From a virus (Duplodnaviria; Heunggongvirae; Uroviricota; Caudoviricetes), in the IMG/VR virus record IMGVR_UViG_2711768056_000005: 64,000 nucleotides of DNA. One strand, 5' to 3'. How positions within the stretch are numbered: position 1 is the first letter of the stretch; each line of letters opens with the position of its first letter. Both the position numbers and the translations under genes were made by a program. Below, piece by piece: positions 10,608-31,352 of the stretch. The notes beneath the pieces were generated by a model. That model was not told the origin of the DNA, did no database searches, and saw only the letters and a program-made list of their open reading frames with translations.

Positions 10608-10624
10608 AAATTAATTAGAGCAAT
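10608..10624 (-). promoter_or_regulatory. C1 operator (16/17 to ATTGCTCTAATAAATTT) in ssb/lyz divergent region
   Basis: AAATTAATTAGAGCAAT on plus strand. Confidence 0.6.
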
Positions 10625-23930: not shown

Positions 23931-24962
23931 CTAATCACCATCTTCCAGCAGGCGCACCATTGCCCCCGTTTCACTATCCAGATTACGGATATAGTTCATG
24001 ACAATATTTACGTTGGTCCAGCCACCAGCTTGCATGATCTCCGGTATTGAAACTCCGGCGCGGGCCATATCTCGCGCAGCTCCGACACGGGCACTGTGTC
24101 CAGACCAAGCCAGGTACCTCTGGCCAGAGTCATCCTTAGCCCCGTAAATCAATCGGTGAGTTGCTTCAAAAATCCCTTCCAGGGCGCGAGTTGATAGCTG
24201 GCTGGTGGATGATGGCGAGGCAACACCATTTTTTCTGACCCGGCAAAACAAGTAGTTATTCGGATCATCAGCCACACCAGAGACAGAAATCCATCGCTCG
24301 ACCAGTTTAGTTACCCCCAGGCTAAGTGCCTTCTCTACACCTGCGGTGCTAACCAGCGTTTTCGTTCTGCCAATATGGATTAACATTCTCCCACCGTCAG
24401 TACGTGAGATATCTTTAACCCTGATCCTGGCAATTTCGGCTATACGTAACAGGGTGTTATAAGCAATCCCCAGAAATGCCAGATTACGTATATCCTGGCA
24501 GCGATCGCTATTTTCCATGAGTGAACGAACCTGGTCGAAATCAGTGCGTTCGAACGCTAGTGCCTGTTTTGCACGTTCACCGGCATCAACGTTTTCTTTT
24601 CGGATCCGTCGCATGACCAGTGAAACAGCATTGCTGTCACTTGGTCGTGGCAGACCGGACCGACGATGAAGCATATTTAGCTGGCCCAAATGTTGCTGGA
24701 TAGTTTTCACTGCCAGACCGCGCGCCTGAAGATATAGAAGATAATCGCGAACATCTTCAGGTTCTGCGGGAAACCACTTCCGGTTATTCAACTTGCACCA
24801 TGCCGCCCACGACCGGCAAACGGACAGAAGCATTTTCCAGGTATGCTCAGAAAACGCCTGGCGATCCCTGAACATGTCCATCAGGTTCTTGCGAACCTCA
24901 TCACTCGTTGCATCGACCGGTAATGCAGGCAAATTTTGGTGTACGGTCAGTAAATTGGACAT
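23931..24962 (-). CDS. cre: Cre tyrosine recombinase
   Basis: 343 aa; MSNLLTVHQNLPALPVDATSDEVRKNLMDMFRDRQAFSEHTWKMLLSVCRSWAAWCKLNNRKWFPAEPEDV...; near-identical to P1 Cre (differs around VASPSSTSQ). Confidence 0.98.
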   Translation of the reverse strand: MSNLLTVHQNLPALPVDATSDEVRKNLMDMFRDRQAFSEHTWKMLLSVCRSWAAWCKLNNRKWFPAEPEDVRDYLLYLQARGLAVKTIQQHLGQLNMLHRRSGLPRPSDSNAVSLVMRRIRKENVDAGERAKQALAFERTDFDQVRSLMENSDRCQDIRNLAFLGIAYNTLLRIAEIARIRVKDISRTDGGRMLIHIGRTKTLVSTAGVEKALSLGVTKLVERWISVSGVADDPNNYLFCRVRKNGVASPSSTSQLSTRALEGIFEATHRLIYGAKDDSGQRYLAWSGHSARVGAARDMARAGVSIPEIMQAGGWTNVNIVMNYIRNLDSETGAMVRLLEDGD

Positions 24963-25795: not shown

Positions 25796-26005
25796 ATGGC
25801 TTTCATTCAACCAACCATCGACGACGTTAGACATTGCTCTAACGCTTTATCTGTAGACCCTGCCGAAACCGACGCTGCCCGCGCCATTGCTGAACACTAC
25901 TCAAAGATATCCAATCAGGAGTACCGCATCACCCAAGACGACCTGGATGACCTCACTGACACAATCGAATATCTCATGGCAACTAACCAGTTAGACTCAC
26001 AATAA
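25796..26005 (+). CDS. coi: Coi, C1 inactivator
   Basis: 69 aa, immediately upstream of c1. Confidence 0.75.
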   Translation: MAFIQPTIDDVRHCSNALSVDPAETDAARAIAEHYSKISNQEYRITQDDLDDLTDTIEYLMATNQLDSQ

Positions 26006-26115: not shown

Positions 26116-26967
26116 ATGATAAATTATGTCTACGGCGAACAACTGTACCAGGAGTTCGTCAGCTTCAGGGATCTCTTTCTAAAAAAAGCCGTTGCACGCG
26201 CCCAACACGTTGATACAGCCAGCGACGGTCGTCCTGTACGCCCGGTTGTCGTTCTACCGTTCAAAGAAACTGACAGCATTCAGGCTGAAATTGATAAATG
26301 GACTTTAATGGCGCGGGAACTGGAACAGTACCCAGACCTCAATATCCCAAAGACTATTTTATATCCAGTGCCTAACATCCTTCGCGGTGTGCGCAAGGTT
26401 ACAACTTATCAGACAGAAGCTGTGAACAGCGTCAACATGACCGCTGGCCGCATTATTCATCTGATTGATAAGGACATTCGCATCCAAAAAAGCGCGGGGA
26501 TCAATGAGCACAGTGCGAAATACATAGAGAACCTGGAAGCAACAAAAGAGCTAATGAGGCAGTACCCGGAGGATGAAAAATTCCGTATGCGCGTACACGG
26601 CTTTAGCGAAACAATGCTGCGCGTCCACTACATTTCCAGTAGCCCTAACTACAATGATGGTAAATCAGTTAGTTACCATGTGCCACTGTGTGGCGTGTTT
26701 ATCTGCGATGAAACTCTCCGTGATGGAATTATCATCAACGGTGAATTCGAAAAAGCAAAATTTAGCCTTTATGACTCCATAGAACCGATCATCTGCGACC
26801 GCTGGCCGCAAGCAAAAATATATCGCCTGGCAGATATTGAAAATGTAAAAAAACAAATTGCCATCACTCGCGAAGAGAAAAAGGTTAAGTCAGCCGCATC
26901 AGTTACGCGCAGCCGTAAAACCAAGAAGGGGCAGCCAGTAAACGACAACCCCGAAAGCGCGCAATAA
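26116..26967 (+). CDS. c1: C1 master repressor of lysogeny
   Basis: 283 aa (P1 C1 length); AGGAGG RBS; near loxP/cre/coi. Confidence 0.93.
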   Translation: MINYVYGEQLYQEFVSFRDLFLKKAVARAQHVDTASDGRPVRPVVVLPFKETDSIQAEIDKWTLMARELEQYPDLNIPKTILYPVPNILRGVRKVTTYQTEAVNSVNMTAGRIIHLIDKDIRIQKSAGINEHSAKYIENLEATKELMRQYPEDEKFRMRVHGFSETMLRVHYISSSPNYNDGKSVSYHVPLCGVFICDETLRDGIIINGEFEKAKFSLYDSIEPIICDRWPQAKIYRLADIENVKKQIAITREEKKVKSAASVTRSRKTKKGQPVNDNPESAQ

Positions 26968-26968
26968 A

Positions 26969-26995
26969 TTATGCCCGGCATCAACCGGGCATTCT
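26969..26995. terminator. Hairpin between convergent c1 and ant-like gene (likely bidirectional terminator)
   Basis: ATGCCCGG-CATCAA-CCGGGCAT; T-rich flank on minus strand. Confidence 0.45.
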
Positions 26996-26999
26996 TCCA

Positions 27000-28118
27000 T
27001 TATTCAGCTGCCACCGGTTTTAACAAGCCAGCATCGAGCAGTTTACGCGTCAACCACTGCTGGCCTTTACCCGTTAATTGAGGCGTCAACCGTATCTGGT
27101 AGCCATCTTCATCATCCAGCACCACTTCTTTCACCGTGAAATACCCCGCGTTGATGTACTGCTGGAACGGCACATTTTTACGTCCACCGGACGCTATCAG
27201 GATGCCGTTCTCCCGTAACCAGACAAACAGCGCGTTTTGCTTAAGTCCAACAACCTTTGCAAAATTCCCAATCAGGATCCCTTTAGCTACTGATACCCGG
27301 TCGGCAAAATCGACTTTAGGAGCGGCGGCCACCAGCTGCTGATTTAGCTGGTGGGCTTTCTGTTCCAGAAGTTGCTTTTGTTCAGCCAGTTCGGCAGCCA
27401 GGCGTAGGGCTTCAGGAAGCGTCTGGGGGATTGCGATCGGTTGCTGTTCTTTTTGTCGGAAGTAGCTGTCTTCCAGTTTTTCAAAGAATGCCCATGCCTG
27501 ATCGGTTTCGAGCATTTTAGCGTGGCGGGCTGCGCCGCGTTCTGTCCAGAGGGTGAGTGAGCGAACATTGCGAGCAATTTTTACAGAGTAGTTTAAAGCT
27601 ACTCTGTGCTTCAACTCGCGCAATGATTCTCCTTCAACTTTGAAAAAGTGCTTCCCTTCAACAAAGCGTACTTTGTTCTCATGATGATTTTGGCGAATAC
27701 GGATTGTTTCTGTCCCATACCCTCTAGCAAGAGTCTCGGTTGTCACTACACGCACTCCCTGCCATTCCAGAACGGGAATTTCATCAGACTGATTCTGAAC
27801 AACCACCAGCTCCGATTCCTGAACTGAAGGTGCATGAATTTTTTCTGATTTAACGTTAGTTGCTTTCATTCTGTGTGCCTCCTTGCGTGCTTCGGCTGCG
27901 ACGGTTGCGTAATTCAGATGACCCTGTTCGAGCAGGTATTCGCGGATATCAGACAACAGGATACGGTGAACCGCGTTCTTGTCCTTTCTCCGGTAAAGTT
28001 GTTTGGTGATCATGAAGTAGTTGGCAATAACGCCTGGTATATCCCTGGTACTGATACAGGCAGTGTGCTGTTCAATTGCCTCGATCATCTCTTCACGGGT
28101 GACTAATGACGTTCTCAT
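27000..28118 (-). CDS. Antirepressor-like protein (ORF6N-type N-terminal domain plus KilAC C-terminal domain)
   Basis: 372 aa; central VLEWQGVRVVTTETLARGYGTETIRIRQNHHENKVRFVEGKHFF resembles ORF6N; C-terminal ...NALFVWLRENGILIASGGRKNVPFQQYINAGYF resembles KilAC; RBS AGGAGGGA. Confidence 0.7.
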   Translation of the reverse strand: MRTSLVTREEMIEAIEQHTACISTRDIPGVIANYFMITKQLYRRKDKNAVHRILLSDIREYLLEQGHLNYATVAAEARKEAHRMKATNVKSEKIHAPSVQESELVVVQNQSDEIPVLEWQGVRVVTTETLARGYGTETIRIRQNHHENKVRFVEGKHFFKVEGESLRELKHRVALNYSVKIARNVRSLTLWTERGAARHAKMLETDQAWAFFEKLEDSYFRQKEQQPIAIPQTLPEALRLAAELAEQKQLLEQKAHQLNQQLVAAAPKVDFADRVSVAKGILIGNFAKVVGLKQNALFVWLRENGILIASGGRKNVPFQQYINAGYFTVKEVVLDDEDGYQIRLTPQLTGKGQQWLTRKLLDAGLLKPVAAE

Positions 28119-28336
28119 AGTCCCTCCTGAGCAGAAGCGTTAACAGGGAGGCACCAGTAACTGAGAGAATTGCGTGAATCAGTGGAAAAACGGGCAGAGA
28201 AAATACATGGGGCGTCAGGAAGCTGAGAGCGGGCCTCATCTTCTGTTGGTGCAATAACGAAGTGATAGTGACGTTTTTGGCAGGAGTAAAAGCGCCAGAT
28301 AAATTCAGGATGAGTTGGGGTAGGGATAGTAGCCAT
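28115..28336 (-). CDS. Icd-like small protein (host cell-division inhibitor family candidate)
   Basis: 73 aa from ATG after AGGAGG RBS; motif YHFVIAPTEDEARSQL...IFSARFS resembles Icd/Ash-like proteins; translationally coupled to downstream antirepressor. Confidence 0.45.
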   Translation of the reverse strand: MATIPTPTHPEFIWRFYSCQKRHYHFVIAPTEDEARSQLPDAPCIFSARFSTDSRNSLSYWCLPVNASAQEGL

Positions 28337-28501
28337 ATTGGCAGCCTCCTTAGACGTTGGTATGTAACCACCGCAGAAGAGACCAATCTTGCTGGCGGTG
28401 GACTGTACGGAGTTGGCCTTACTGGCGTCCAAGGTAACCAGCCTACCCGAAGGTAGCCCCATACAGCCCACCATTGTAGAGGTGTGCGTGTACGCCGATA
28501 C

Positions 28502-28630
28502 AAAAAAAGACGCGAGCGGCGTCTGTATCGCCTTAGACTTAAGCGGGAGGCCAATCCCGGCACCCGTTTTAATGAGGTGCCTGATAAGCATAAACCGAAA
28601 ATGCCACAAGGCGCAAGAGGTCAGGTTCAA
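28502..28630 (-). ncRNA. Candidate C1-controlled small RNA (c4-like antisense RNA?) ending at intrinsic terminator
   Basis: Minus-strand hairpins GGCACC..GGTGCC and CGGGA..TCCCG followed by AGACGCCGCTCGCGTC + T7 terminator (plus 28501-28524); segment GGCCUCC complementary to AGGAGGCU RBS of the icd-like ORF. Confidence 0.3.
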
Positions 28631-28654
28631 TGTAACATCGGTAGCTAAAAAACA

Positions 28655-28671
28655 CAATTTATTAGAGCAAA
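28655..28671 (-). promoter_or_regulatory. C1 operator (15/17) upstream of the small-RNA/icd-like/ant-like operon
   Basis: Reverse complement TTTGCTCTAATAAATTG. Confidence 0.55.
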
Positions 28672-28674
28672 TAT

Positions 28675-30159
28675 TCATTCATTAAGCCATGCCAGAGCTT
28701 CATCAACCTGCGCTTCGTCTTCGACGCTAAGCACTTCATCCTGGGGAACATAATCCGCCAGCATAGCGAAACAATATGTATCCCAATGGTCTGGTGAGTG
28801 CAGGTTGAGTTTTTTCTTCATATCCTCCTTACTCATCACCTTCCATTGACCTGCGGAGTTAATCCCTACAGGGATTTTCGACGCTTCCTCAATAGTTTCA
28901 TTACCCTTATCCAGTCTCATACGACCAGATTTTACGGCCTCTGCGGCTTGAACATTGGCATAAGCACGTTTATCAAAGTACAGGCTCTTATCTTCACGGC
29001 TATGCATCTTTTTACCCCAGCGTATACGCTGTACGGTAATACCATAATACTCGTACATCAGATCCGCCGTTGCTTTACCCAGGCCATCGCCGTCTATCGC
29101 TATGGTGATATTGGGGAATCGCTCAGGATTACATTCTGCGAAAATTTTGGCGGCAAGCTGCGTTTCTGTAACGTCTGTGTATTCCAGCATTCGATAGTTG
29201 ATTACACGGCGTTTATTTCGCTGGCCGGACACCATCATGATATTGATAACGGACTTATCCCGTCCCGTACCACCAGCAACGTCCACACATGCAAGCCAGC
29301 CCCATCCTTTGGCAATCTTGACTTTCCGCCGCGTTGCACGTTCAACCTCATCACGTCCAAGAAGGAAGCCATCCTGTGATTTAGGGAATAGGCCGCGTAC
29401 CTTAATCATGTACATAGGGTTATCACGCCCGCCGTACTCCGCCAGCTTCATTTTGATAAATGCTGGCGTTACCAACGGTGATTCCTCACTGTTAAGCGTG
29501 ATCGCCGTATAAACGCCATCAGGGTTACCAGGACGCTTGGCCAGTTTATGGTGTGTATCGTAGAAATAGCCGCTTGGGCGTGTAGGCTGTGACAGCAATA
29601 AGATGCGGTTATCCTGTCCGGTAAGAGCACCGGTGATGATACCGAAAGCTCTATCACTGACACCGGAGGCTTCATCGATAATATACAGAAGATGATCTGC
29701 GTGTTCACCGGCGAGAGCTTCTTCACTTCCCAGACGAAAGCCCTTCGGTACTACAGTCCATACACCTTTACCAGTAATCTCATAGAAAGCGGTTTCTGTC
29801 AGAACAAAATAATCAGCAAGCCATGGGAAACGGCTGGTGGCAGTAGCCCAGTTTATCTTGATGTACTTGAATATACCGGTCATTACCTGCTGAATTTTGT
29901 TCGCAACGATAATGGCACAGGCACCTGGATACATGATTATGAACAACATGATCATGATAGAAGTCATGTCTGATTTCCCGGTACCGTGACCAGACGAAAC
30001 AGATGTCTTGCTACCCTGTTCCTGCACAGACTCAATAATCAGATCCTGCTGCCAGGTAGGTGTTTTGCCGAACAAAACATCAGCGGCAGCAATCCAGTCA
30101 TAACGATATAGCGCCACCAGCTCGCGCCAACGTGGATCCGTTACGCAACTTCTGGCCAT
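28675..30159 (-). CDS. pacB: Terminase large subunit PacB
   Basis: 494 aa; Walker A-like SGHGTGKSD, nuclease-domain acidic motifs ([22 protein letters not shown]). Confidence 0.93.
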
Positions 30160-31352
30160 TAATCATCATCCCCGTATAGCTTGCGGGTAACTTCTTCGTC
30201 TTCCTCCTCGTCTTCGTCCAGGTCTTGTTCCAGCCATGGGTCGTTTGATACACCTTCAGTATCAACATCTCCATAACCGCCTGTATCAACGATATCGGCG
30301 ATTTCTTCCCTACGCTGCTCAATCCACAATGCGGCATCGGCGCGGCGGTTGGCGGCCCGTTCTCGCGCAACTTTGTCCAGATCTTCAAGAGAAGGACCAC
30401 CGACGGCAGTTTGCCTTTCCTCATCATCGGTATTGGTCTTAGGAGCACGCAGATCGGCTTTGATTTGCTCCAGCATCAGGGGCGGCACTTTCCCGCCATG
30501 CGCCTCGATAAATTCAGCTGCTTCCAGCACTGACCAGTTATTTTCACGCTTTCGTTCGTATGCCAGCTTAACAATGCCAGCTTGCCCCATAGACAAAGCG
30601 TGCTTTTCCGCCTCCCGGCTTTCTTTTCGATAGTTATTCCGGATGCTGTAAATGGTGTTGATCAGACTGCTTATCTGCGCGGAACAGCTGTTTAGCATGC
30701 TCGCGATACGGTATTCAGGCGGAGTACCTTCATCATCGGCTTTTTGCTGATCGCGCATTTCCTGCACCAGGCGAATACACGTATCCCTGGCGTTCTCCAG
30801 CATAAGGAGATGAGAAAGAGACTTTTCCAGAAGAGTGGTTTCCAGAACATCGGCCCCGGACCGACGCAACATAGCGCGCGCGGCCTTCCGCGCTTCAACG
30901 TTATCTATCAGGTAATCGCCAGCTTCGAATTCAAAGCGTTCACCATCATCATCCAGGGTGTCGCGTTCCAGGCGATCACGCAAGGTCCGGTGGGCACGGG
31001 TGATCACGTCATGATCATCAGAACGATCATTTATGCGCTTATTTTGGCGCTTCGCATTCTCGACTGCGACACTGACAATGGCATTAACCCTTTGTTTTTC
31101 TGCTATTTCAGCCGCAATGTGATCACCGGAATGTTGATCATTAGAGTGATCAATGATCATGCTTTTTAGTGGCTTCCTGACTGGCTTATTTGGCTTGCGG
31201 CTGTCCGCTGTCCTGGTGTCTTCTTTGAAGGCACGGAGATAACGACGTGCGGTATTAGGGTTAAGATTAAACTCGGCGGCATACTGTGCGATGGTGTAAC
31301 CACCATCTCGCGCCAGGCGAGCAAAATTCTTCTTGTGATCGTCCCAGGTCAC
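30159..31352 (-). CDS. pacA: Terminase small subunit / pac-recognition protein PacA
   Basis: 397 aa; contains the pac site; highly acidic C-terminus; overlaps pacB start. Confidence 0.9.
30970..31160. other. pac packaging-initiation site (two clusters of TGATCA/TGATCG hexamers carrying Dam GATC sites)
   Basis: Hexamers at 30974, 31001, 31012, 31024 and at 31120, 31135, 31148, 31154 inside pacA. Confidence 0.85.

Follow-up and report, generated by a model that had tools for sequence, protein, structure and literature searches.

Immunity in phage P1 is the textbook three-part system of immC, immI and immT, and was elucidated with two laboratory phages that lack the insert described here, a segment lying between pacB and c1 in a P1-like phage-plasmid. 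The immI operons of P1 and P7 share with this insert their part order, a homologous C1 operator and promoter region, and a c4 RNA of the same Rfam family. They also share recognition at two sites, with site b2 placed over the icd ribosome-binding site (RBS), an ATGA overlap of icd and ant, and a nested ant2. The Icd proteins are 80% identical, and both ends of the Ant protein are P1-like. However, the insert sits at pacB/c1, uses another recognition code, encodes an Ant with an ORF6N centre, and is additional to the canonical immI. Its leader, which ends in a strong terminator, belongs to the IsrK type (RF01394) instead of the c4-a1b1 type (RF03163).

Another related system is the isrK-orf45 (STnc1160)-anrP locus of the Salmonella prophage Gifsy-1 (Hershko-Shalev et al., 2016; PMC4825925). 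Experiments on this locus demonstrated termination and read-through of the leader, a processed downstream RNA, and coupled translation of the antirepressor (PMC4825925). The insert has a leader of the same RNA family with a Rho-independent terminator that is read through, followed by a c4-like RNA and then a coupled antirepressor gene. In contrast to the insert, Gifsy-1 is an integrated lambdoid prophage whose locus lacks icd and a C1 operator. In Gifsy-1 the antirepressor brings about production of the antiterminator AntQ, and the authors describe activation by a short RNA, not repression by c4 (PMC4825925).

Phage D6, a P1-related plasmid prophage, also holds a c4-a1b1-type module, and its second module (orf83/orf82) combines isrK, C4, icd and an antirepressor with a code identical to that of the insert in phage JL22. 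This second module differs in lying near pmgF and ref homologues, in its Rha-type antirepressor, and in the promoter context of its leader. P4 immunity (seqA, CI RNA/seqB, seqC) is similar in that a processed leader RNA pairs with its own upstream and downstream sites; however, it acts chiefly by terminating transcription in the alpha operon and has neither icd nor ant (PMC4825925 and established background).

An insertion of ant between pacB and c1 has already been noted in RCS47 and pTZ20_1P, at the same locus and with the same gene set (Venturini et al., 2019; PMC6906374). Over the module, RCS47 shows 88% identity to the present insert, and it has a different code (a UUGAGAC, b GUCAAAGG). 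That description stays at the level of genes, namely two short hypothetical ORFs and ant, with RNA elements, codes and regulation undescribed (PMC6906374). A paper on 77 P1-like plasmids makes no mention of pacB, icd or antirepressors (PMC9603915). The antirepressor gene at pacB/c1 is already known, and what is new relative to the literature is the RNA parts of the insert.

An immI-type module between pacB and c1

The window, which is the whole 64,000-nt stretch of DNA analyzed, belongs to a P1-like phage-plasmid. Within it, the 24-bp spacer that separates c1 and pacB in P1 and SJ46 has been swapped for the insert, precisely from stop codon to stop codon. The features of the interval are as follows.

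26968 to 28674, minus strand: whole insert, 1.7 kb, boundaries compared with P1, RCS47 and SJ46
28655 to 28671, minus strand: C1 operator TTTGCTCTAATAAATTG, two mismatches to the consensus, homologue of P1 Oc4/Op51
28629 to 28657, minus strand: putative C1-controlled promoter (P51a/P2c4 homologue), assigned by position from P2c4 as annotated in P1
28587 to 28616, minus strand: putative constitutive promoter (P51b/P1c4 homologue), by conserved -10 position
28503 to 28580, minus strand: IsrK-type leader/small RNA (Rfam RF01394, 60.8 bits, gathering score 50)
28391 to 28478, minus strand: c4 antisense RNA (Rfam RF01695, 75.9 bits, gathering score 45)
28345 to 28386, minus strand: c4 target region of the mRNA, by complementarity and covariation across modules
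28115 to 28336, minus strand: icd, Icd-like cell-division inhibitor, 73 aa, with 80% identity to P1 Icd
27000 to 28118, minus strand: ant1, 372 aa, with Pfam ORF6N and ANT/KilAC domains, compared with P1 Ant1 by BLASTP
27000 to 27869, minus strand: ant2-like nested in-frame product, 289 aa, starting at Met84
26971 to 26992, no strand assigned: hairpin separating the stop codons of ant and c1, terminator-like on the minus strand, nine pairs by scan

Transcribed from the operator end, the order is C1 operator, IsrK-type leader with a1/b1 and terminator, c4, a2/b2, icd, and ant1/ant2. The identity and order of all parts are observed, as are the complementarities and the covariation among them, and the insert is a genuine immI-type operon with a recognition code of its own. 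In the main reading of these data, which has a probability of about 0.8, the P1-like phage-plasmid has here a second, functional immunity module of the immI type. An original prediction made from the DNA alone had placed an immI-like module of C1 operator, small RNA, icd and ant here, where P1 and P7 have nothing, and had noted that immI lies far from immC in P1. Both points stand: P1 immI is ~45 kb off, and alignment with P1 gives a c1-pacB gap of only 24 bp. Whereas immI of the P1/P7 type adjoins sim/kilA/repL, this module lies between pacB and c1.

The boundary comparison with P1, RCS47 and SJ46 revealed no repeats flanking the junctions, and a transposon-like origin was rejected on this ground. 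The module is convergent with c1 and, as predicted, a single hairpin (26971-26992) separates the two stop codons. This hairpin is part of the insert, being absent from the P1 and SJ46 spacers, and is probably a bidirectional terminator shared by ant and c1.

Operator and promoters

Operator-like sites number 17 in the window, compared with 0.26 expected by chance. The one at 28655-28671 had been proposed beforehand and holds up, aligning with P1 Oc4 (AATGCTCTAATAAATTT) and overlapping the -35 element of the P51a-like promoter. The latter is weak, with -35 TTGTGT (28657-28652), a 17-nt spacer and -10 TACATT (28634-28629). The P51b-like promoter has -35 TTGCGC (28616-28611) and -10 TATGCT (28592-28587), with a predicted start at ~28580. 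A TAnnnT motif lies precisely 7 nt 5' of the leader CACC in all 63 unique leader variants, despite differing upstream contexts. Both promoters are poor fits to the consensus, and a consensus promoter scan returned neither of them above threshold. The operator is accompanied by putative tandem promoters 5' of c4, as in immI, both being assigned by homology and positional conservation.

A leader RNA of the IsrK type

The RNA that follows matches RF01394 over model positions 1-77 of 77, and the start of the Rfam model falls at 28580. It consists of a 5' hairpin, a second hairpin presenting a1 (UUGGCCU, 28554-28548), site b1 (GUCUAAGG, 28538-28531), and an intrinsic terminator formed by a stem at 28524-28508 and U7. 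The terminator was identified by a scan independent of Rfam, and the RNA has the IsrK character of a full-length match above the gathering score that ends in a Rho-independent terminator. The c4-a1b1 leader model RF03163 gives 20.5 bits (E 0.006) on this leader against a gathering score of 46.7, a threshold passed by P1, P7, D6 module 1 and the canonical immI of pE2-2. The leader is related to the c4-a1b1 motif, yet belongs to the isrK type.

According to the original prediction, the segment 28501-28640 was a c4-type antisense RNA in which GGCCUCC would pair with the icd RBS AGGAGGCU and repress icd. Part of the supporting evidence is sound. The segment is structured, with its two hairpins confirmed within 28503-28580 by folding and Rfam and the terminator confirmed at its end, and the 7-nt complementarity exists. 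However, Rfam names this segment isrK and puts C4 at 28391-28478. The complementarity includes one G-U pair and is near chance expectation, matches of this type being expected about 0.1-0.3 times by our arithmetic. GGCCUCC is part of the a1 target hairpin, its GGCCU lying within a1 and thus matching target a2 in sense. In the homologues from RCS47 and JL22, AUUGAGACCCC stands in its place while the RBS is unchanged; the pairing is not conserved and is not the functional one. Repression of icd by this segment through GGCCUCC is highly improbable.

The same segment had been described as transcribed and ORF-free. A transcribed, structured RNA with a terminator fits the leader, although frames of 187 aa and 156 aa cross it. 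The 187-aa frame, which has a Pfam Phage_ASH match, was considered as a genuine gene and rejected as the principal reading: it crosses leader, terminator and c4, and starts in the region of the pacB stop. Translation from AUGs inside c4 may occur.

The c4 RNA and its targets

The c4 RNA lies 3' of the leader terminator, in a stretch that had been taken for spacer, and its synthesis consequently depends on read-through. In the predicted fold, b' (CCUUGGAC, 28434-28427) occupies the loop of hairpin 2 and a' (AGGCCAA, 28419-28413) is single-stranded. Pairing in the stems reaches 99.8-100%, and 15 of the pairs covary. As in immI, c4 is in the same transcript as its target and 5' of it, 55 nt upstream of the icd start. 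The target comprises a2 (UUGGUCU, 28386-28380) and b2 (CGUCUAAGG, 28356-28348), the latter lying over the icd Shine-Dalgarno AAGGAGG (28351-28345). Site a' pairs with a1 UUGGCCU and a2 UUGGUCU, and b' CCUUGGAC pairs with b1 and b2 through GUCUAAGG; all four helices have 7-9 bp, which gives the arrangement of a'/b' with a2/b2 and a1/b1 copies that characterizes immI.

Covariation of a1/b1, a'/b' and a2/b2 is almost perfect over 28 related modules, and matching triplets are found in eight modules. A survey of IMG/VR gave 63 unique leader-c4 sequences that represent 29 different codes and in which cognate helices average 6.9-8.7 Watson-Crick pairs, compared with 3.5-4.7 for non-cognate ones. In alignment A1, a1-a' is 100% paired (both sides changed in 4/7 pairs) and b1-b' is 98.7% paired (both sides changed in 7/8 pairs). 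The a'-a2 and b'-b2 helices are 85% and 83% paired, respectively, against 32-50% for slid controls. Covariation supports the a'/b' pairings, and not that of GGCCUCC with the RBS, as the functional complementarity.

The fit is closer in the leader than at the target. The a2-a' pairing includes one G-U, making a1 the better partner of a', and this could leave c4 mostly sequestered. A second mode of control, by IsrK-type activation, has to be weighed here: a1/b1 of the leader would pair with the c4 region in cis as a silent default, the short leader would bind the c4 region in trans and so free the RBS, and c4 would not primarily be a trans-acting repressor. The membership of the leader in RF01394, its conserved terminator and the better fit of a' to a1 all agree with such a scheme, and the minimum free energy structure predicted for 28330-28582 contains the a1-a' and b1-b' helices in cis (z = -3.9). 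In Gifsy-1, short IsrK binds Hfq, works in trans on its own read-through transcript and raises translation of the downstream antirepressor >100-fold (PMC4825925). However, covariation with a'/b' extends to a2/b2 as it does to a1/b1, and b2 is always over the RBS, which a pure cis-lock does not need. The genetics of P1 also speaks for repression in trans, c4 reportedly having been defined as a trans repressor in work by Citron and Schuster in 1990 and by Biere et al. in 1992. IsrK-type activation as the principal mode of control has a little under an even chance. It is compatible with trans repression by c4, and the two probably operate together, the leader serving as a c4 decoy.

The icd and ant genes

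The predicted 73-aa Icd-like ORF is borne out by its identity to P1 Icd and by a strong RBS, AAGGAGG with an 8-nt spacer to the start. Its product matches NCBIfam NF033153 (phage_ICD_like). Pfam has no model matching Icd, and NCBIfam none matching either Ant protein. The icd stop overlaps the ant start as ATGA, and translation of icd is expected to be needed for ant expression. An ORF6N/KilAC antirepressor coupled to icd had also been anticipated, and the HMM search found both domains in the 372-aa protein: ORF6N (PF10543) at E 2e-19 (70.1 bits, cut-off 27.8) and ANT/KilAC (PF03374) at E 4e-31 (107.9 bits, cut-off 25.3). A second Shine-Dalgarno, AAGGAGG at 27884-27878, precedes Met84, and the motif RKEAHRM and the start position are conserved with the annotated P1 ant2. 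As in immI, icd is followed by nested ant1/ant2, a coupling deduced from the sequence.

BLASTP of Ant against P1 Ant1 gives 56% overall, with the C-terminal part far closer than the centre and almost free of mismatches. Its N- and C-terminal parts resemble P1 Ant1; its centre is ORF6N, related to Roi/AntB of Stx phages. Because the central third is unlike P1 Ant1, binding to C1 is not assured. The module might be regulated as proposed while Ant targets a different repressor, either that of a co-resident lambdoid prophage or some other protein of host or phage, in which case its role would be prophage cross-talk instead of P1 immunity. An ORF6N centre that P1 Ant1 lacks and that resembles Roi/AntB favors this view, and Salmonella Gifsy phages reportedly have trans-acting antirepressors that cross between prophages. 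However, P1 Ant1, which binds C1, has the same Ant1-specific N-terminus, Ant2 start and KilAC C-terminus as this protein, and the module stands behind a C1 operator and adjoins c1. A target other than C1 is accordingly unlikely.

Distribution and genomes with two switches

The original prediction considered this an unusual immunity arrangement. It is instead common: the insert is carried by phages RCS47, JL22 and vB_EcoM-673R5 and by 268 PLSDB plasmids, against 569-616 that have pacB (~45%), and it is kept intact. Plasmid pE2-2 has a 100% identical copy of the module in a different mosaic backbone that is ~98% identical; the best match of another segment of the window is 99.6-99.7% identical. 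Four different codes occur at pacB/c1, each with matching a1/b1/a2/b2, and at least four code combinations occur at the canonical immI site.

The insert is itself mosaic, with leader and c4 ~76% identical to Stx phages, an ant centre of the Roi/AntB kind and P1-like ant ends. A decaying, inert duplicate left by recombination with another phage could have such a composition, and could also have weak promoters. However, every ORF is intact, the RBSs are strong, the coupling is kept, and 268 plasmids have a copy. Four codes that each match internally require continued selection on pairing. An inert leftover is very unlikely.

Four insert-carrying genomes also retain the canonical immI beside kilA, where c4 has a different code, giving two non-matching c4 switches per genome. 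The insert comes on top of immI and does not represent its relocation. The four relatives suggest two modules in the genome of the window as well, the canonical immI position lying outside the window.

A model for regulation

We infer promoter use, c4 processing, a decoy role for the leader, C1 as the Ant target, and an ecological role as follows. Transcription would start from two promoters, the operator-overlapping, C1-repressible P51a homologue and the constitutive P51b homologue (start near 28580). The leader terminator probably ends most transcripts, yielding an IsrK-like RNA of ~75-80 nt that bears a1/b1. Read-through transcripts would contain c4, presumably excised and stable as in P1, where RNase P matures it. 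Its loop b' and single-stranded a' would then pair with a2/b2 of the same type of transcript and cover the icd Shine-Dalgarno. With icd untranslated, the coupled ant1/ant2 would not be expressed; in P1, untranslated icd also leads to premature Rho-dependent termination. Icd and Ant would be made when c4 is limiting, either upon infection of a cell without c4 of this type or through titration of c4 by the a1/b1 leader, and Ant would inactivate the C1 repressor.

The insert c4 code (a UUGGCCU, b GUCUAAGG) is unlike the canonical immI codes, so that the genome would run two independent antisense locks on two antirepressors. The two locks probably widen both superinfection immunity and the ability to overcome resident relatives. 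A broader scheme, in which two non-matching c4 locks control one antirepressor each, an IsrK-type leader serves as decoy at pacB/c1, and mixing of a and b sites at both loci creates a combinatorial code of heteroimmunity that would govern superinfection, induction and exclusion among P1-like plasmids, is put forward tentatively, at somewhat less than even odds.

Implications

The insert connects two largely separate lines of research, on P1 c4 and on Gifsy-1 IsrK. Its isrK-type leader holds a1/b1 sites for c4 of the same kind as the P1 leader. AUGs conserved in the 5' stem of the insert c4, at +107 and +119 from the predicted start, match the positions of the two AUGs of Gifsy-1 "orf45". These shared sites and positions suggest that IsrK can simply be read as a decoy for a c4-type RNA. 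For annotation, pipelines place an "ash family protein" (Pfam Phage_ASH) over what are RNA genes.

If the module works as inferred, P1-type immunity would have a fourth locus and heteroimmunity a second determinant, with consequences for which P1-like plasmids can live together and which displace or induce others. Many insert-bearing plasmids carry resistance genes, such as blaSHV-2 and blaCTX-M. Through its effect on plasmid compatibility, a working module would thus also affect the spread of resistance-bearing P1-like plasmids.

Genomic setting of the insert

The window is a P1-like phage-plasmid. Its cre, coi, c1, pacB and pacA genes show 91-99% matches to phages such as P1, P7 and RCS47. 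In P1, and likewise in phage SJ46, only 24 bp separate the stop codons of c1 and pacB. In the window this spacer is substituted, precisely from stop codon to stop codon, by 1,707 bp (26968-28674); comparison of the boundaries found no repeats flanking the insert. The relevant features are as follows.

Features of the window
23931-24962, minus strand: cre
25796-26005, plus strand: coi
26116-26967, plus strand: c1
26971-26992: hairpin between the ant and c1 stop codons, belonging to the insert
28524-28508, minus strand: stem of an intrinsic terminator, followed by U7
28592-28587, minus strand: -10 (TATGCT) of a putative second, P51b-like promoter, a poor consensus match
28655-28671, minus strand: C1 operator, TTTGCTCTAATAAATTG, aligned position by position to P1 Oc4/Op51 and the beginning of the P51a promoter
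28675-30159, minus strand: pacB
30159-31352, minus strand: pacA
56180-56252, 58256-58328 and 58334-58406, minus strand: three tRNA genes, expected in a P1-like genome

The insert is an uncharacterised member of the immI/c4 family with an IsrK-type leader and its own code, that is, its own combination of a and b recognition elements. The original prediction had identified a real module and named its general type correctly, but its key molecular claim, the position of the antisense RNA, was misplaced.

Operator, promoters and coding sequences

The C1 operator that had been proposed is present, and a weak, putative P51a-like promoter on the minus strand (-35 TTGTGT, -10 TACATT) overlaps it with its -35. 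Across the window, 17 C1-operator-like sites occur at three or fewer mismatches, against 0.26 expected by chance. They are dispersed (for example at 10608, 25541, 42878, 59072 and 62594) and, judged from sequence, may outline the C1 regulon of the element. In 63 of 63 unique homologous leaders, whose upstream contexts are quite different, TAnnnT lies exactly 7 nt upstream of the leader CACC; from this spacing, transcription is predicted to begin at about 28580, where the Rfam isrK match also starts.

Both predicted reading frames were borne out. The 73-aa ORF has the strong ribosome-binding site AAGGAGG, is 80% identical to P1 Icd and matches NCBIfam phage_ICD_like. Its stop codon overlaps the start of the 372-aa ant as ATGA, so translational coupling is predicted, and the latter carries ORF6N and KilAC/ANT domains. 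An internal start at Met84 has its own AAGGAGG and agrees with P1 ant2 both in position and in the motif around it (RKEAHRM). P1 Ant1 and the module Ant have the Ant1-specific N-terminus in common and their C-terminal parts align almost without mismatch. The ORF6N domain that forms the centre of the module protein is absent from P1 Ant1.

A 187-aa frame (28115-28678, minus strand), notable above all at 28474-28334, crosses the leader, terminator and c4 and reads stop-free into icd. Pfam Phage_ASH, a family apparently modelled on translated RNA genes, matches the frame (E 2e-11); PGAP labels such frames in other plasmids 'ash family protein'. Counted from the predicted transcription start, the window has AUGs at +107 (28474) and +119 (28462), which coincide in position with the pair in orf45 of Gifsy-1, a frame that is translated. 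The equivalent RCS47 frame ends at b2 after 39 codons.

Leader and c4 RNAs

The segment originally taken for the antisense RNA (28501-28640) is instead, according to Rfam, an IsrK-type leader (RF01394, 60.8 bits, 28503-28580), which scores only 20.5 bits against the c4-a1b1 type (RF03163). A 5' hairpin is followed by a second one with a1 (UUGGCCU, 28554-28548) in its loop, then by b1, GUCUAAGG (28538-28531), on an open stretch, and finally by the predicted terminator, which was detected again independently. The GGCCUCC thought to pair with the icd ribosome-binding site is part of the a1 hairpin; in the RCS47 and JL22 inserts it is replaced by GAGACCCC although the ribosome-binding site is identical.

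The c4 RNA proper, previously overlooked, is placed by Rfam downstream of the terminator and ahead of the icd ribosome-binding site (C4, RF01695, 28391-28478, 75.9 bits). Its fold shows the long closing stem and two internal hairpins of its family; b', CCUUGGAC, occupies the second loop, and the single strand next to it holds a' (AGGCCAA). Downstream are its targets: a2 (UUGGUCU), whose pairing with a' includes one G-U, and b2, CGUCUAAGG, overlapping the icd Shine-Dalgarno sequence.

In the window and its homologues, an outer stem encloses the leader terminator and U-run (28531-28495, minus strand; columns 55-95 when 28 modules that differ in code are aligned). The changes in its two sides compensate each other: the window has CGAUACA/UGUAUCG, both RCS47 and JL22 have CGACACA/UGUGUC, and other modules have GCGCACAAC/UUGUGCG. 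They point to an extended hairpin in read-through RNA, which may serve processing.

Proposed mechanism

The mechanism is modeled by homology on P1 immI, as reportedly described by Citron and Schuster 1990, Biere et al. 1992 and Heinrich et al. 1995. As in P1, c4 would be supplied by constitutive transcription and, acting on a2/b2, would block icd translation, leaving the coupled ant unexpressed. With c4 absent or outnumbered, Icd and Ant would be made and Ant would inactivate C1, its likely target on sequence grounds. At the homologous Gifsy-1 locus, some transcripts end as a small RNA and others continue past the terminator and are the source of a processed, stable RNA; the short form acts in trans to switch on translation of the antirepressor coupled to it (PMC4825925). 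The predicted fold of the whole window leader pairs a1/b1 in cis with a'/b', and a1 is a better partner for a' than a2. Because of this fold, the stronger a1 pairing and the Gifsy-1 data, we infer that the terminated leader is probably a decoy that titrates c4.

A second module alongside canonical immI

The insert is an additional module, not a relocated immI. Its carriers vB_EcoM-673R5, RCS47, JL22 and plasmid pE2-2 keep the canonical immI beside kilA; the module of 673R5 is 99.4% identical to that of the window, and that of pE2-2 100% over 1,861 bp. All inserts have an isrK-type leader, and the canonical modules examined (P1, P7, D6 module 1 and pE2-2) have the c4-a1b1 type. The canonical code is P7-type in RCS47 and pE2-2, a hybrid of the P1 a-site and P7 b-site in JL22 (locus L133), and a P7 a-site with a new b-site, ACGAAUGA, in 673R5 (L132), which shows that canonical immI also mixes and matches recognition elements. 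None of these resembles the insert codes, and P1 or P7 c4 forms at most five consecutive pairs with the window's targets. Four codes occur at the pacB/c1 locus, that of the window being the commonest in the sample.

Phage D6 (L008, L009) likewise has two c4/icd/antirepressor modules that differ in their leader, isrK-type in the first case and c4-a1b1-type in the second; both encode antirepressors of the Rha rather than the KilAC type. Downstream of the isrK-c4 module in Stx phage P13374, an Rfam sRNA-Xcc1 match (L005 3523-3606, 79.6 bits) falls inside or next to the short ORF 'antB2'.

Covariation of recognition sites

Among eight modules (the window, the RCS47 and JL22 inserts, both D6 modules, P13374, P1 and P7), a1/b1, a'/b' and a2/b2 vary between modules and match within each. 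Scanning IMG/VR with a conserved leader 18-mer gave 120 loci, comprising 63 unique leader-c4 sequences with 29 distinct (a', b') combinations. On average, a cognate helix has 6.9-8.7 Watson-Crick pairs and a non-cognate one 3.5-4.7.

The 28 aligned modules were selected for differing a' and b'; targets played no part in the choice. In them a1-a' is 100% paired, with both sides changed in 4/7 pairs, and b1-b' 98.7% (7/8 pairs). For a'-a2 (85%) and b'-b2 (83%), a single subgroup with one-base shifts in the alignment pulls the figures down. Pairing in the c4 stems reaches 99.8-100%, and 15 of their pairs covary. When the partners were offset by 1-3 columns as a control, only 32-50% pairing was left.

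Two IMG/VR loci are natural hybrids. In L119, the leader a1 (UUGAGAC) is unmatched to its own a' (GUUCCAA), which a2 matches; a1 is likewise unmatched in L106. From their sequences, both look like recombinants between leader and c4 of different codes.

Frequency and significance

The arrangement, anticipated to be unusual, is neither rare nor unrecorded: 268 PLSDB records contain at least 80% of window 26900-28760 and 569-616 contain pacB, placing the insert in about 45%. GenBank annotates ant there in RCS47 and Icd/Roi in 673R5 and JL22, and an ant insertion between pacB and c1 was described for RCS47 (Venturini et al., PMC6906374). The RNA families involved have been known since 2008-2010 (PMC2330248, PMC2864571); the searchable literature yielded no account of these RNA elements, of their codes, or of two c4 systems existing side by side. 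The appeal of the module is chiefly that heteroimmunity among P1-like plasmids may be set by two antisense locks, each independent of the other and both diversifying.
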